Part shown: positions 3,097 to 36,006 of the stretch, in pieces | Numbering within the stretch: the first letter of the stretch is position 1 | Layout: each line of letters begins with the position of its first letter | Virus record (IMG/VR): IMGVR_UViG_3300029705_000040 | Span: 1-38,208 of that record | Strand: one strand, 5' to 3' | DNA length: 38,208 nt | DNA from: a virus | Lineage: Duplodnaviria > Heunggongvirae > Uroviricota > Caudoviricetes | The notes under the pieces: model-generated | Told to the model about the DNA's origin: nothing | The model's database searches: none | Seen by the model: only the letters and a program-made list of their open reading frames with translations | Made by a program: the position numbers and the translations under genes

Positions 3097-3642
3097 ATGG
3101 ATAGTAAGGAATTATGGCACCAGTATAATTTATCTTATGATGACCAACTCAACTTCCTAAAAAATAAATACGGATTACCTCAAGGAAATTATTTTCTTAC
3201 TGAGAGTTGCAAATCTACAAATAACAAAATAAAAAGAGCTAAAGAAGGACTTTACGTGCATCATGATTATGAGTGGAATCCAAATGACTGGACATGTCAT
3301 AGCTTAAGCACTCAAGAATTAGCCTTAAAATACCCTTTCGAATATCAATTAAGTGATCATCTAACATACTGTAACATGTTAGAGCATTTAATGTTGCATA
3401 TGAAAATTTATAGATTAAGACGCGATTATCTAGGTGGACCAATTTTTACAGATGGGGTACAAAATTTCTTGATACCACAAATAAATGATATTTATCAGAC
3501 TAGAAAATATAAGCAAGAATGGCTTATAGCAACAAAAGAAGCTATAGTAGAAAATTATAATGATTATATTGAGCTGATAAAAATTCATGCAGAAGATAGT
3601 GATCAAGATGTTGTAGATCTATATGGTTTATCTTTAAGATAA
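3097..3642 (+). CDS. HNH-like nuclease family protein
   Basis: GLYVHHDYE...HLTYCNMLEHLMLH His/Asn pattern. Confidence 0.5.
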   Translation: MDSKELWHQYNLSYDDQLNFLKNKYGLPQGNYFLTESCKSTNNKIKRAKEGLYVHHDYEWNPNDWTCHSLSTQELALKYPFEYQLSDHLTYCNMLEHLMLHMKIYRLRRDYLGGPIFTDGVQNFLIPQINDIYQTRKYKQEWLIATKEAIVENYNDYIELIKIHAEDSDQDVVDLYGLSLR

Positions 3643-3715
3643 TGTATAACAAACTATGTGTGGATAAACTATTTACTTAAGAATAGTTAGTCCTTTTCCA
3701 TATAGAGGGAGTAAT

Positions 3716-4975
3716 ATGTTTATAGTAAAAAGAAGCGGTAAGCGTGAAAAATTTGACAAAGAAAAAATAAAAATTGTTTTAGAAAAAGCTAATGAAACAG
3801 TTTTAGAAGAGTATCGAATATCTAAAACTATAATAAACAATATAGCTGAGAAGATCGAGAAGCTAGCAGAAGAAAATGCAACTATGTTTACTATAGATGA
3901 TATCCAGGATGCAGTGGAAGATTATCTCATTAAAATAAATAAATATGAGTTAGCTAAATCATATATAAAACATAGATATACGAAAGAATTAGCTAGAGAT
4001 AAATATTCTAAGATGATGGATGCTATTGCGAATAAAGTAGCATGCAAAGATATCCAAAATCAAAATGCTAACTTAGATGAAAAATCTTTTGGTGGTAGAA
4101 TTGGTGAAACATCATCTTTAATAATGAAACAGTTTGCTTTAGATTATTGTGTATCACCCAAAACTAGAGAGAATCATCTCAATAATGAGGTTTATATACA
4201 TGACCTCGATTCTTATGCTGTTGGAAGTCATAACTGTTTAAGTATTCCTTTTGATAAGCTATTAGCTAAAGGCTTTAATACTAGACAAACTGATGTTAGA
4301 CCTGCAAATAGTGTTAATACAGCCATGCAGTTAGTTGCTGTTATATTCCAATTACAAAGTTTACAACAATTCGGTGGAGTAAGTGCAACACATCTAGATT
4401 GGACGATGGTTCCATATGTGAGAAAATCTTTTGCAAAACATTTTAAAGATGGTATGGAAGAATTACCTTTCAAGTGGTGGAAATTGTTTAAGGATACTAG
4501 AAACTATCAACCACCAAAAGAATTACCTTTCGATGATGCTACTATAAACTTAAAAAGATTTAGAAGAGTTTATAGATATGCTATGAAAATGACTAAAAAA
4601 GAAACCCATCAAGCAGTAGAAGCTTTATATCATAACTTAAATACATTGCAAAGTAGATCTGGCTGCCAACTTCCTTTCACCAGCATTAATTTAGGAACAT
4701 GTACGCAAGAAGAAGGGCGGTTAGTCAGTAAAGAAATTCTTACTGTGTGTAGACAGGGTTTAGGTAAGTTTCATAAAACATCTATCTTCCCATGTGTTAT
4801 ATTTCAATGCATGAAGGGTGTTAACCGTAAAAAGGGTGATCCTAATTATGATTTATTTAGGCTAGCATTAAAATCAACTGCTGAGAGATTATACCCCAAC
4901 TATGCTAATGTAGATTGGAGTGGTAATGCTGGATATGATCCAAAAGATCCTAAAACATATTTTTCAACGATGGGT
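3716..4975 (+). CDS. nrdD: Anaerobic (class III) ribonucleotide reductase, exon 1, with N-terminal ATP cone
   Basis: MFIVKRSGKREKFDKEKI ATP cone; YIHDLD, NCL, QFGG, SGCQLPFTSINLG; exon ends ...YFSTMG at T4975. Confidence 0.93.
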
Positions 4976-6039
4976 AAGCGTAAACTACAGCTCATCTAAA
5001 ATCTTTTGAACCTCGCTCGAGGGTGTTTAATATTACTAAATGGGTAGAACCTTAAATATTTTTAATTAAAGGTTATGCTAAATTTATTGATAATATTTTG
5101 CTAACGGTTAGGTCCAGACATCCTGGATGAGACCGTGCTAAGCGGGTGAGGATAGATTTGGTTATATACAAAATAACATGTTTAAAAAATAATAAAATTT
5201 ATATAGGTCAAACAAAAAATACATCTAGAAGACGTTTCGAACATCATGTTAAAGGTGCCTTAACAAATGATTTAGATACGCATTTAGCTAGAGCTATAAG
5301 AAAATATGGTCCAGAAAACTTTATTTTAGAAGATATAGATTTTGCTGAAAATCAAGAAGATTTAACTGAAAAAGAGTATTATTGGATAAATTTTTATGAA
5401 AGCTTTAAGCCAGATATTGGTTATAATGAGACAAATAATAAAAATAAATGCGGCGGAAATACATATAAATTTAAAAGTATTGAAGAAATGCAGAAAATAA
5501 AACGTAAAATCTCAAAAGCAAATTCTGGTTCTAAAAATGGTATGTCAAAAGGTGTTAAATGTAAAAACACAAAAAGCGGAGAAGAATTTCATTTTGGTTC
5601 GACCGCGGAATGTGCTAGGTTTTTTGGTACATATGTAACTGGTTTTATAAGAAAACGCTGTTGTGGTTACAATTACCTATATAAAAATACCTGGGCTTTT
5701 GCTTGGGAAGATGATCAATTTCTTTTAGAATATGAGAATTTTGATCCATCTACTAGAAAAGGAATAAAAGTTTAGCTTTTAAATTTAGAAACAAAAGAGG
5801 TATATACTTTTAATAGTAAAAGTAAAGCAGCAAAATTTCTAAATGTTGAGTTAGCAATTATTAAACATGATATTATTGTAAATAATTATAGAATATCTAT
5901 TCTCAACTGAAAGTGTATCGACTATTCCTGATGAGTTTAAGGAAGTAGGATTGGAGATAAGCACCAATCCGAAGCGGAAGACTACTTATAATAAAAGTAG
6001 AAGATATAGTCAGTGCTAACAGTAATGTTAGATAAAATG
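4976..6039 (+). mobile_element. Group I intron (1064 nt) in nrdD
   Basis: Exon ends in U; GATGGGT pairs with the internal guide GCTCATC giving a U.G pair at the splice site; S element AAGATATAGTC 6001-6011; terminal G6039; splicing restores STMG|CRTANG in frame. Confidence 0.92.
5146..5910 (+). CDS. Intron-encoded GIY-YIG homing endonuclease with NUMOD/IENR-like DNA-binding repeats (254 aa with TAG 5773-75 read as Gln)
   Basis: IYKIT...IYIGQT motif; read-through adds a second repeat (KGIKVQLLNLETKEVYTFNSKSKAAKFLN) matching the first (KGVKCKNTKSGEEFHFGSTAECARFFG); TGA 5908-10. Confidence 0.88.
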
Positions 6040-32436: not shown

Positions 32437-32465
32437 TTGATTTATAAATGAAAATATTATATAAT
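32437..32465 (+). promoter_or_regulatory. Phage promoter AG-TTGATT-N17-TATAAT
   Basis: Exact 17-nt spacer. Confidence 0.85.
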
Positions 32466-32777: not shown

Positions 32778-32806
32778 TTGATTTATTAATTAATTTATTA
32801 TATAAT
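32778..32806 (+). promoter_or_regulatory. Phage promoter AG-TTGATT-N17-TATAAT
   Basis: Exact 17-nt spacer. Confidence 0.85.
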
Positions 32807-32838: not shown

Positions 32839-33027
32839 ATGGAAAAGCTTGATCATTTCGAACTTATGTTAGTAAAAGGTTGTGTAGTATCTGAAATCAG
32901 ACAGCTCGAAGAATTAAATGCTGAAATTGATAGCAAAAAATCACCATCAACTATAGATTTAGTTAACTATGCTTATAATAAAGAATATATTGAAAAATAT
33001 CAAAAAATTATTCAAAAATTAAGTTAA
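32839..33027 (+). CDS. Hypothetical protein
   Basis: 62 aa; GGAG RBS. Confidence 0.7.
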   Translation: MEKLDHFELMLVKGCVVSEIRQLEELNAEIDSKKSPSTIDLVNYAYNKEYIEKYQKIIQKLS

Positions 33028-33033
33028 AAACAG

Positions 33034-33062
33034 TTGATTAAATAATCAAAATATTATATAAT
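33034..33062 (+). promoter_or_regulatory. Phage promoter AG-TTGATT-N17-TATAAT upstream of the ncRNA/tRNA block
   Basis: Exact 17-nt spacer. Confidence 0.85.
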
Positions 33063-33097
33063 ATATAATGTAAATAGAAGTTATAGAGGTCATTGAT

Positions 33098-33268
33098 ATG
33101 GATAAAAAGCAAATGTTAAAAGACGGTTTGAAAAAGAAAACAGTGTATTTACTTGTTGGAAAAGATATCAATGGAAAAGAGCATTTCACAGTAATAGAAG
33201 ATTTAGAAATGGCTAAGCTTTATAAAACTAGTGAAAATGTTCGACCTATAACGATGTTTATGAAATAA
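33098..33268 (+). CDS. Small hypothetical protein (56 aa, not in ORF track)
   Basis: GAGG RBS; MDKKQMLKDGL...ITMFMK. Confidence 0.65.
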   Translation: MDKKQMLKDGLKKKTVYLLVGKDINGKEHFTVIEDLEMAKLYKTSENVRPITMFMK

Positions 33269-33274
33269 GCTAAA

Positions 33275-34325
33275 TAAACGGTGCCACGAAGCCAAAGCGT
33301 TCGCGATATAGATGTTATTAAATCTCTCAAAAACGGATCTGGGAAGAAAGCAGCTGTGGTAAATGGAATGAGATAAACAGCCGTTATTAAAACTCAAATA
33401 TAATCAATGACGCCTCGGAAAGACGAGCATTAACTGGTTGGGTAGTTAGGTCATCATCTCTCAACTTGAAATGACCAGATTTGTTTATATTTGAGTAACA
33501 ATTTAATTGAACACTGTAGTTTAACAGCAGCAAGTCGTAAACACCTCATCTAGAAAGGGGAGAAGTGGTTTCGGTAGATGGTAAGTGCAATTCACCACTA
33601 GTTAGTTCAATTAACAATAAAAACCTAGGTATTCAAAACGTAGAGTAAAATCCGCGTGGAGGAAGGTCAGACATTTCTAATTCAAGTGCACAAAGGATTA
33701 GAAGTGAGTTGTTGTCAGGACATTTAGTTATTAGTCCTATCCGTATGAGACAATGAGGTTATCCCCGAAGGATAACTGACGGTGAAAAAGTTGAGTAGAC
33801 CTTTAATCGAAAGATGAAATAACTGCTTATATATAATATTGTACTGAAGTTCACAAATCGATTCTCAGCAAAATGTGTATCTGAAAGATGGTAAATTGTG
33901 ATAGTACACTACTTCGGCGAGTACAATATTTTGGTGCGGAATAAAGAGTTGATTTACATGTCCGCGAAAGTCAACCACCTTTAGAAATTAGTCGTGTAAG
34001 GCATTATACGGCGCGTAGTAATTATTGATGTGGTAGGTCCGTTGAAAGATTACGGCACCCATCAAGCGGGGCGTGTATGAATGATATAGTCGCTAAGCCC
34101 CGCGGCGACATAATTAATGTAACGGTCAATAAATACTAATTGTTAACCGTGGTTAGTTGCAGAGAGGATAGATGCTCAGTGGAATAGTTGTGAAATATCA
34201 ATTCTACCTCTTCAGAGTTTAATTAAGGACTGACGTTACTTTTGGAAACGACACAAAGGCGTACAGACTAAACCAACGAGAAGGGTTTATCCGTAACTGG
34301 ACAACACGTTAGAAATTGTCCGTAT
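33275..34325 (+). ncRNA. Candidate large ornate ncRNA (GOLLD/ROOL-like); boundaries approximate
   Basis: About 1 kb with no plausible ORF and higher GC; perfect long-range stems 33392-402/33486-96, 33503-12/33605-14, 33835-45/33920-30; GAAA-capped hairpins; abuts the tRNA array. Confidence 0.65.
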
Positions 34326-34329
34326 ATAC

Positions 34330-34405
34330 TCCAGGGTGTTAGCAATGGTAGCTGGCGAGGTTCATACCCTCGAGGTTGTGAGTTCGAGTCTCACCCCTGG
34401 GCCCA
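34330..34405 (+). tRNA. tRNA with CAU anticodon (Met or Ile2), atypical C73
   Basis: CGAGG-TT CAT AC-CCTCG; T arm GTGAG-TTCGAGT-CTCAC; encoded CCA. Confidence 0.8.
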
Positions 34406-34408
34406 AAT

Positions 34409-34486
34409 CACTTACTCGACTAACTGGTAAGTCGTCCGCTTGAGCGCTGCGGAGGTTAGAGGGTTCAAGTCCCCTGTAAGTGGCCA
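34409..34486 (+). tRNA. tRNA-like gene with 9-nt anticodon loop (TTGAGCGCT); identity unassigned
   Basis: Acceptor CACTTAC/GTAAGTG, G73, CCA; D stem GACT/AGTC; stem TCCGC/GCGGA. Confidence 0.7.
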
Positions 34487-34655
34487 TTTAAGGTAAGGCC
34501 TTCTCTAACAGGTAGACTTTAAATTAGTTAGAGTCAAGCGTTTCTCGATATCGTATAAAGAATCGAGCTTTAATTTGTTATCTTAATACGCTTGTTGGTT
34601 CGTATTTATTTAACTTAATCTATGTATTGTTTAACTGGATAATACATAGATACAT

Positions 34656-34738
34656 GGGTAGCATGGCGAAATCTAGAAGACGCGAGGGTCGCTCCCTTAC
34701 CGAAAGGTGTGTAGGTGCAAGTCCTGCTGTGCCCACCA
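34656..34738 (+). tRNA. Leu-type class II tRNA-like gene with 5-nt anticodon loop (TCGCT)
   Basis: GCG/CGC D stem, GAGGG/CCCTT stem, variable arm ACC-GAAA-GGT, T loop TGCAAGT, A73-CCA; bulged G in the acceptor stem. Confidence 0.65.
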
Positions 34739-34803
34739 TCAGATTTATAATCTGAAACCTCTTTTTATTTACACATTAATGGTAGTATTTTCTACCATTA
34801 TAT

Positions 34804-34873
34804 CTATGGATAGTCTAGCGGATAAGACGCTGGTTAAGAGCCAGTATCGCAGGTTCGAATCCTGCTCTATAGC
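34804..34873 (+). tRNA. tRNA-like gene with shortened anticodon arm (loop TAAGA), C73, no CCA
   Basis: Acceptor CTATGGA/TCTATAG; D stem GTCT/AGAC; T arm GCAGG-TTCGAAT-CCTGC. Confidence 0.65.
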
Positions 34874-35151
34874 ACGCTTATAACAGGTTGTAAAGGCCTA
34901 ACAACTTTAGAGGTAAGATGGCTGATTGAAAAAGATCAGCATACGTATCCTGAGTGCCCTTCGATTCGGTTCGACTCCAAACATTCGCATCGGAATAGCG
35001 AGAGGGTAGGTCACGAGAGTCGTAAGATAGTTCGAGTCTATCCCTCAAGTTTATCTTTTTACAATTACTAAATATGTGCTAAAATTATTGTATAATATAT
35101 TATATGATATAAGGAAACATATTTATGAGTGAGAAAAAAGATTAGAAATTA

Positions 35152-36006
35152 TTGAAAAAATATCTTCTTAAAAATGTTGAAAATGGATATGTACCATCAC
35201 CGGAAGATACTAGAGACTACACAATTAAAAATGTTGCTTTAGAAGAAACAGATGAAATACCTGAAACTTACATAAAGAAGGGTATGAAAGTACTTAGTCA
35301 AGGTAATGTTGGAAGTTGCGTTGCTCATGCTTGTGCCACTGCTATGGGGTATGGTGAGTTAGCTGGTGGTTTTGAAACTGCTCATGATTTCAGTAGAGGT
35401 TATATCTATGGTAATAGAGGTCCTGCTGATTCGCAAAGTGAAGGTATGTATATACGTCAAGCATTAAAACAGTTAAATAAATGTGGTGATGTTGAGTATA
35501 TAGATTTTCCGCTAAATGCTAAATATCCAGTAGTTAAAGCAGAAATAGAGAAGAATAAAGATGCTTTAGCTGAAAAAGCAGCTCAATTTAAAATAGTAAA
35601 TTACTTTAGATGCTATAGTGATGAGGAAGTTAAGAAGACTCTTCTAGCTCAAGGTGCCGTAGTTATAGGTATTCCTGTATATAGCTCATTTAAAGCGGAA
35701 TGTCCATTACCTGATGCTGATGATAAACGCACTGGTGGTCACGCTATGGTTGTTGTTGGTTGGGATGAAACAGGCTGGATTATACAAAATAGTTGGTCTA
35801 GCAGTTGGGGTAAGCAAGGATTTATGCATTTACCATACGATTATCCTATTGATGAGTTATGGGGAATAACAGTCAATAAAAATGTTCCACAACCTGAACA
35901 AAAATCAGCTACAGATAGAATTGTTGCTTTCCTCGCTTTCTATATTAAGTATCTATTAAGAGAAATTAAAAGATTTTTTTTACAAAAAATAAGTAAAAAT
36001 AGTTGA
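35152..36006 (+). CDS. Papain-like (C1A) cysteine peptidase
   Basis: SQGNVGSCVAHA (Gln/Cys), GGHAMVVVG (His), IQNSW (Asn), WGKQG. Confidence 0.88.
   Translation: MKKYLLKNVENGYVPSPEDTRDYTIKNVALEETDEIPETYIKKGMKVLSQGNVGSCVAHACATAMGYGELAGGFETAHDFSRGYIYGNRGPADSQSEGMYIRQALKQLNKCGDVEYIDFPLNAKYPVVKAEIEKNKDALAEKAAQFKIVNYFRCYSDEEVKKTLLAQGAVVIGIPVYSSFKAECPLPDADDKRTGGHAMVVVGWDETGWIIQNSWSSSWGKQGFMHLPYDYPIDELWGITVNKNVPQPEQKSATDRIVAFLAFYIKYLLREIKRFFLQKISKNS

Follow-up and report, generated by a model that had tools for sequence, protein, structure and literature searches.

Structured RNA modules, including a recurrent small RNA family, at the head of a phage tRNA array

The window, the 38,208-nt stretch of DNA under analysis, covers the initial 38 kb of a 164-kb phage contig from IMG/VR (IMGVR_UViG_3300029705_000040; CheckV completeness 76%), and the source phage is of gut or rumen origin. 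The contig has a G+C content of ~31%, carries two CUA suppressor tRNAs and contains 35 tRNA genes (ARAGORN), 33 of which form a 21-kb array at 34330-55373, every one on the + strand. The subject here is the gene-free stretch at 33269-34329, which lies between a conserved open reading frame (ORF) of 56 amino acids (aa) at 33098-33268, with no Pfam family, and the first gene of the array, tRNA-Met(CAU), at 34330-34405 (37.3 bits). The stretch holds a real, well-supported set of structured RNAs matching no known family; it is not a GOLLD or ROOL member and probably not a single 1-kb RNA. From 5′ to 3′ we call them R1 (33272-33390), D2 (33392-33497), D3 (33503-33614) and the large domain (~700 nt; 33620-34329). 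The 56-aa ORF, its promoter, tRNA-Met and all modules, hairpins and helices given coordinates within the stretch are on the + strand.

The + strand of 33269-34329 contained no ORF of at least 50 aa under table 11, under table 4 or with TAG read as glutamine, so that an earlier claim from the sequence-only reading, that no credible ORF exists over ~1 kb, held under three genetic codes. The only longer frame with TAG as glutamine was 85 aa long and required six TAG codons. Homologous regions of relatives had no long ORF in any frame (maximum of 60 aa with table 11 and 77 aa with TAG as a sense codon), and their substitutions showed no 3-base periodicity and no conserved ORF. G+C content was 0.37-0.46 in the stretch vs. 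~0.31 in its flanks. Three long stems were found exactly where that reading had placed them (33392-33407 with 33481-33496, 33503-33512 with 33605-33614, and 33835-33845 with 33920-33930), and its smaller hairpins were readable in the sequence. Each long stem closed a separate module of ~100 nt, however, and was not a long-range helix within one RNA. Structure exceeded chance, because stems covaried among homologs and folding z-scores were low (-2.69 for 33596-34329 and -3.2 for D2). The view of the stretch as a noncoding, structured, + strand element at the head of the tRNA array, ending at tRNA-Met, was thus upheld.

Comparison with described RNAs gave no family. Against the 4,227 families of Rfam 15 at gathering thresholds, the window matched tRNAs only. 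With the threshold relaxed to E ≤ 10, positions 32900-35100 gave tRNAs and noise (searched families including OLE, tmRNA, RNase P and group I and II introns), with no riboswitch, self-cleaving ribozyme or YrlA match, and the corresponding regions of four relatives likewise gave no family beyond tRNA and noise. The GOLLD model (RF02032; gathering threshold of 150 bits) had no match in the 164-kb contig at E ≤ 10, and the ROOL model (RF03087; 99.1 bits) had none at E ≤ 1. The suggested GOLLD/ROOL-like family assignment is unsupported because these covariance models match nothing over the whole contig.

Relatives of the locus were retrieved through the exact 56-aa protein and its homologs. Some were identical copies and one (L188) was near-identical; the rest fell into five diverged groups (L186; L192/193/195; L194/196/197; L198; L232). 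No match to the whole region was found by blastn among 50,697 GenBank phages. Homologs of the 56-aa protein were 65-100% identical. In each of the relatives recovered, the ORF lay directly 5′ of the RNA chain, and R1 came next downstream wherever that DNA was available. Seven diverged relatives revealed a composite locus, in which the modules between this ORF and the tRNA differed. L186 kept R1 and D3 and had two further R1-type copies in place of D2 (three in total). Both D2 and D3 were missing from the L192-L197 groups, and L198 had a variant R1 followed by D3. L232 had two R1 copies, and within its 3′ block a D2-type module took the exact position that the D5 module occupies in the window (see below). 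D2 also followed R1 in L238 and L241, two unrelated contigs of metagenome-assembled genomes (MAGs). This gain, loss and movement of modules, together with the occurrence of D2 after R1 in unrelated contigs, argues that R1, D2 and D3 are self-contained cassettes. Judged from these alignments, only ~33620-34329 appears to act as a single conserved block.

R1 is the widespread member of the set. In a self-search, a segment of ~50 nt close to the 5′ end of the stretch recurred at 52.1 and 52.5 kb of the same genome; each of the three copies is an element 100-150 nt long, in which two constant blocks flank a variable middle. The two further copies (52057-52202 and 52496-52597) lie near the far end of the tRNA array. 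To assemble a set of homologs, IMG/VR was scanned for patterns and a covariance model was then applied; the initial 14-mer scan returned mostly chance matches, which were filtered. The model gave 79 matches (46 distinct sequences), with few exceptions from phage contigs 50-260 kb in length. A looser scan yielded 62 distinct copies, and all but a few of these were in contigs of large uncultured phages or gut MAGs. R1 was present in 13 MAG contigs, assigned to gut Clostridia, Bacteroidales and Candidatus Limenecus. The R1 of the window scored 94.2 bits (E = 2e-19).

All R1 copies with a tRNA in the locus were on the tRNA strand (49 of 49). The tRNA was within 1 kb in 46 cases and within 30 nt in 13 (about a fifth of R1 copies); in the window, R1 is 940 nt 5′ of tRNA-Met. 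Some copies sat between two tRNA genes and some formed tandem runs of two to four. Approximately half were followed by at least 300 nt more of sequence free of ORFs and tRNAs. No protein family recurred in more than five loci within 4 kb of R1. R1 is absent from Rfam 15, and blastn of a 40-nt R1 core against GenBank phages gave only noise (E ≥ 2). A text search for the core in the accessible literature returned only unrelated primers and a satellite-like small RNA. R1 could be an unnamed entry in the IMG/VR structured-RNA catalogue of PMC10690425.

The R1 fold consists of a closing stem (P1), a 5′ core (GGUGCYACGAAGC), one or more variable hairpins (P3) and a 3′ core (AGCWGURGUAAAUGGA, then 8-9 nt, then AACAGCC). 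In P2, UGCYAC of the 5′ core pairs with GURGUA of the 3′ core and switches among C-G, U-A and A-U. P1 covaries freely. Across the 46 distinct copies, 98.6% of cells were paired and 81 were changed on both sides, and this pair score was reached in 0 of 500 shuffles. Mutual information also pointed to an A-A/G-G pair in the 3′ core and to a C-G pair closing P3. The R1 of the window has the covarying P1, the P2 helix and both conserved cores. Assignments of R1 as a k-turn, a T-box-like element or a hairpin ribozyme were dropped by eye, since the conserved nucleotides do not fit. The most valuable product of the locus, in our view, is R1, a small RNA that is sharply conserved and widespread in phage tRNA operons.

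Several further observations concern R1. Between the two distal copies in the genome lie ~290 nt more of ORF-free sequence, and the entire interval 51816-52600 is noncoding. In L118, a 146-kb IMG/VR contig, positions 3184-5615 hold two R1 copies, each followed by ~900-1,000 nt with no tRNA; the next same-strand ORF after the first copy is ~880 nt away in a strict scan, and only short opposite-strand ORFs were listed after either copy. Other, unrelated large noncoding RNAs may thus lie downstream of R1 in other phages. A variant, R1b, was seen in L186 (3298-3393) and L198 (705-801), with 25-31 bits against the R1 model. It shares with R1 the start (GGUGCC) and the end (UAAAUGGAAU...GAGAAACAGCC), but its middle differs, with no obvious P2. 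In two MAG contigs (L233, Congzhengia sp., and L239, Clostridia), a tRNA-shaped gene lies ~8 nt 3′ of R1, with a long insert of ~60 nt after the anticodon stem region; ARAGORN did not call it, and an ordinary tRNA comes next. It is possibly an intron-bearing phage tRNA.

D2 has a 16-nt closing stem. Its conserved pieces are AAUGAC, a CUYG-GAAAGA-CRAG hairpin, a GUAGUUAGGU loop and ACCAGRUUUG, and the D2 of the window carries the closing stem, the hairpin, the GUAGUUAGGU loop and ACCAGRUUUG. Homologs were found in L232, inside the large domain, and in L238 and L241, ~90 nt past an R1. Among these four distinct members, a small sample, covariation was observed in the closing stem, the hairpin and an inner 5-bp helix. 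The D2 family is rarer than the R1 family, and an exact-pattern scan of IMG/VR for D2 gave no matches. D3 has a perfect 10-bp closing stem, in which an A-U pair is changed to G-C in L186. Its first hairpin is conserved and its interior is variable. It was restricted to relatives, in which it occurs in L186 and L198.

The large domain was conserved and collinear, up to the 5′ end of tRNA-Met, in the window, L186, L192/193/195, L194/196/197 and L198 and partly in L232; the L197 sequence in this comparison was incomplete (cut short). The consensus structure with two added pseudoknots comprised 148 pairs, with 96.4% of cells paired in an eight-sequence alignment. Thirty-one of the 148 pairs were changed on both sides, vs. 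11.3 ± 2.4 in shuffles (reached in 0 of 500), a score inflated by derivation of the tested structure from the same eight sequences. When partners were slid, only 0-7 pairs were changed on both sides. The + strand is the RNA strand because there are many invariant G-U pairs. Every supported helix spanned less than ~100 alignment columns, and the sole longer helix predicted was a poorly kept one of 3 bp (83% pairing).

Several individual changes in the block were clear. A GGAC/GUCC hairpin (33718-33737) is replaced by GCAC/GUGC in seven relatives, which is a compensatory change. The peripheral module D5 (33835-33930) has a perfect 11-bp stem in which a U-A pair becomes U-G in relatives. In pseudoknot 1 (33933-33979), nested GGUG/CACC and GUUGAU/GUCAAC helices are crossed by CGG/CCG; it was nearly invariant in 10 sequences, with a G-C to A-U change in GUUGAU/GUCAAC of L198. 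Pseudoknot 2 (34066-34109) is of the H type, with GCGGGGC/GCCCCGC crossed by GUCGC/GCGAC, and its first stem occurred in three covarying versions (GCGGGGC, GCGAGGC and CCGAGGC) with matching partners. Farther 3′, the GAUGCUCAGU/ACUGACGUU helix (34171-34180 with 34229-34237) had four covarying positions in three versions, and a hairpin with a conserved GAAACGACA loop (34239-34259) changed from CUUUUG/CAAAGG to CUGUUG/CAACAG. The near-identical relative L188 (JGI 3300022661) differed from the window at only three positions, clustered at 33734-33740, on or just past the 3′ strand of the GGAC/GUCC hairpin. These changes would break the hairpin, and they could represent a real variant or an assembly error.

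Beyond the relatives, the large domain was not recovered. Searches with 33391-34329 (blastn and nhmmer) gave no significant match elsewhere in the genome or in any of the retrieved loci, and an nhmmer profile of the large domain found nothing elsewhere. Exact-pattern scans of IMG/VR with four pieces of the region, two of them from the large domain, gave no matches; such scans detect exact conserved words only, and near-identical records may be missing from their output. A scan of JGI metagenomes gave 32 matches, none related to the large domain. Sixteen of the 32 had the same spacing and belonged to one conserved protein-coding gene, which reads as glgC in translation, and the remainder look like chance matches. 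Within the searches made, the large domain thus appears confined to this phage lineage.

Given the observed noncoding nature, strand, stems, family memberships and module reshuffling among relatives, we consider that 33269-34329 is probably a polycistronic chain of independently folding structured RNAs that heads a phage tRNA operon. The arrangement that we favor for this chain is, from 5′ to 3′, R1, D2, D3 and a ~700-nt block of local domains with two H-type pseudoknots. A promoter at 33034 would drive transcription of the chain along with that of the 56-aa ORF and the tRNAs. This promoter is sigma-70-like (33034-33062; TTGATT-17-TATAAT; 10/12 match) and is the likely transcript start for the ORF and the RNA chain. 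No terminator-like site was found between it and 34330, and none after the 56-aa ORF. A "strong promoter" upstream of the RNA had been read from the letters alone; it precedes the 56-aa ORF and not the RNA directly. The relative L232 has a TTGATA-17-TATAAT promoter immediately before its first R1.

Short A/U-rich linkers and host tRNA-processing nucleases may then free the modules as stable RNAs. Cleavage by RNase P at 34330, the 5′ processing site of tRNA-Met, would set the 3′ end of the chain, as with species 1 and 2 of phage T4. During infection, the freed RNAs may act in trans, most plausibly on the tRNA and translation machinery or on host defenses aimed at it. Several points weigh against such a chain. 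Co-transcription, processing and stability are all inferred. The pair score of the large domain is inflated, as stated, and the methods used are blind to tertiary or pseudoknot contacts between modules. The block at 33620-34329 was never broken up or reordered in its inheritance, a pattern also compatible with one functional RNA. Finally, any function of R1 is a guess, because R1 has no conserved protein neighbor.

The T4 species 1 and 2 RNAs are co-transcribed with tRNAs and cut out of the tRNA transcript. Their genes, rnaC and rnaD, are located in the T4 tRNA cluster, and R1, D2 and D3 resemble them as small structured RNAs in a tRNA cluster and on the tRNA strand. They may offer the best functional analogy for these three modules. 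The resemblance does not extend to homology with rnaC or rnaD, as the R1 model scored no more than 6.9 bits on the T4 region.

The strongest competing explanation, which we judge considerably less probable than a chain of separate modules, is that 33272-34329, or at least 33620-34329, is one molecule of a new, GOLLD/ROOL-like class. Its variable 5′ region would then consist of R1, D2 and D3, and oligomer self-assembly might occur. GOLLD has a variable 5′ region, a conserved 3′ region and a phage origin, and one studied copy lies beside tRNA-Met (PMC12286853). The locus parallels this architecture: it encodes large structured phage RNA by tRNA genes, the 5′ part being variable and the 3′ part conserved and pseudoknotted. 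The location in a phage beside tRNAs and the 5′/3′ pattern were both found, as an architectural resemblance only. The 3′ block is also collinear in all relatives, with two pseudoknots and many conserved loops, and D2 can sit within it (L232). However, the GOLLD and ROOL models did not match and no long-range helix was supported. Unlike the 5′ region of GOLLD, the 5′ part here consists of autonomous modules: R1 and D2 stand alone in unrelated phages, R1 forms tandem arrays, and the module set varies between close relatives. With ROOL the locus shares rumen or gut phage origin, large size and proximity to tRNA islands, whereas sequence and helices are unrelated. A single RNA of ~1 kb, as originally proposed, was thus not borne out by modules that are separate, reshuffled among relatives and, in the case of R1 and D2, present in unrelated contigs.

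A bolder combination would keep the reshuffled cassettes and add a particle. R1 would be a new catalytic or ligand- or protein-binding class that punctuates gut-phage tRNA operons, and the ~700-nt block would be a third GOLLD/ROOL-type RNA, forming one particle with exchangeable peripheral domains of the D2 type. We hold this to be improbable as a whole.

A cis-acting role has also been weighed, in which R1, possibly together with the remaining modules, would act as a sensor or cleave itself, thereby controlling how the downstream tRNAs are transcribed or processed, and would define a new riboswitch or ribozyme class. In R1, ~30 nucleotides are invariant, and both an asymmetric internal loop and a 19-nt bulge are conserved, features typical of ligand-binding or catalytic cores. 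R1 also occurs in tandem, always 5′ of tRNAs or other noncoding RNA and on the same strand. This role is unlikely, as neither a terminator nor a hairpin sequestering a ribosome-binding site was found after R1, no resemblance to the riboswitch or ribozyme families of Rfam was found, and R1 often lies between two tRNAs 3-20 nt away, which is gene-like and not leader-like.

We give little credence to the idea that R1, like a Y RNA, partners a Ro60-like (TROVE/DUF2828) protein of a phage. R1 does resemble the Y RNAs (YrlA) of Ro60 in its constant core with a variable insert, its tandem copies and its presence in phage tRNA arrays, and DUF2828 occurs in two of five near-complete R1-bearing genomes. 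The other side of the comparison is heavier: the conserved core differs from that of YrlA, neither YrlA nor other Rfam families matched, this contig and three R1-bearing genomes (at least 95% complete) have neither TROVE nor DUF2828, and R1 has no recurrent protein neighbor. A DNA-level element (a replication origin or recombination site) or unrecognized small protein genes have a negligible probability, because the perfect inverted repeats of 10-16 bp and the variable module content that suggest the former are accompanied by compensatory changes that keep pairing and by many + strand-specific G-U pairs, with no iterons and no G+C skew switch, and the latter would require a conserved ORF or codon periodicity, neither of which was found.

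Enigmatic RNAs such as T4 species 1 and 2, GOLLD and ROOL, with roles unsolved for decades, are already known from phage tRNA arrays. To these the locus adds R1, with its invariant nucleotides, its 62 distinct copies, its proven stems and its common occurrence in large uncultured gut and rumen phages, as well as another small family and a novel large RNA with pseudoknots. It also shows that such RNAs behave as exchangeable cassettes. Because R1 is short and conserved, direct tests are possible, and the role of non-tRNA RNAs in phage tRNA operons becomes more tractable.

The neighboring genes gave additional observations. The 56-aa ORF was the sole gene that always accompanied the RNA chain in relatives, and its product is a candidate RNA partner on this positional ground; no homolog of it was found beside R1 in unrelated phages. 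A papain-like cysteine protease (35152-36006) is embedded in the tRNA arrays of several lineages (for example, L178 and L179) and appears to be an unusual conserved passenger of such arrays. Searches with this protease recovered no relatives of the locus in IMG/VR, and its many protein-database homologs (~65% identity, in tRNA arrays) had none of the RNA region.

The promoter at 33034 is the third copy of a repeated cassette, the others being at 32437 and 32778. The three cassettes (32437-32465, 32778-32806 and 33034-33062) share similar flanks of 45-80 nt, and each heads a small ORF, of 80, 62 or 56 aa. Together, the cassettes and small ORFs look like tandem early mini-genes.
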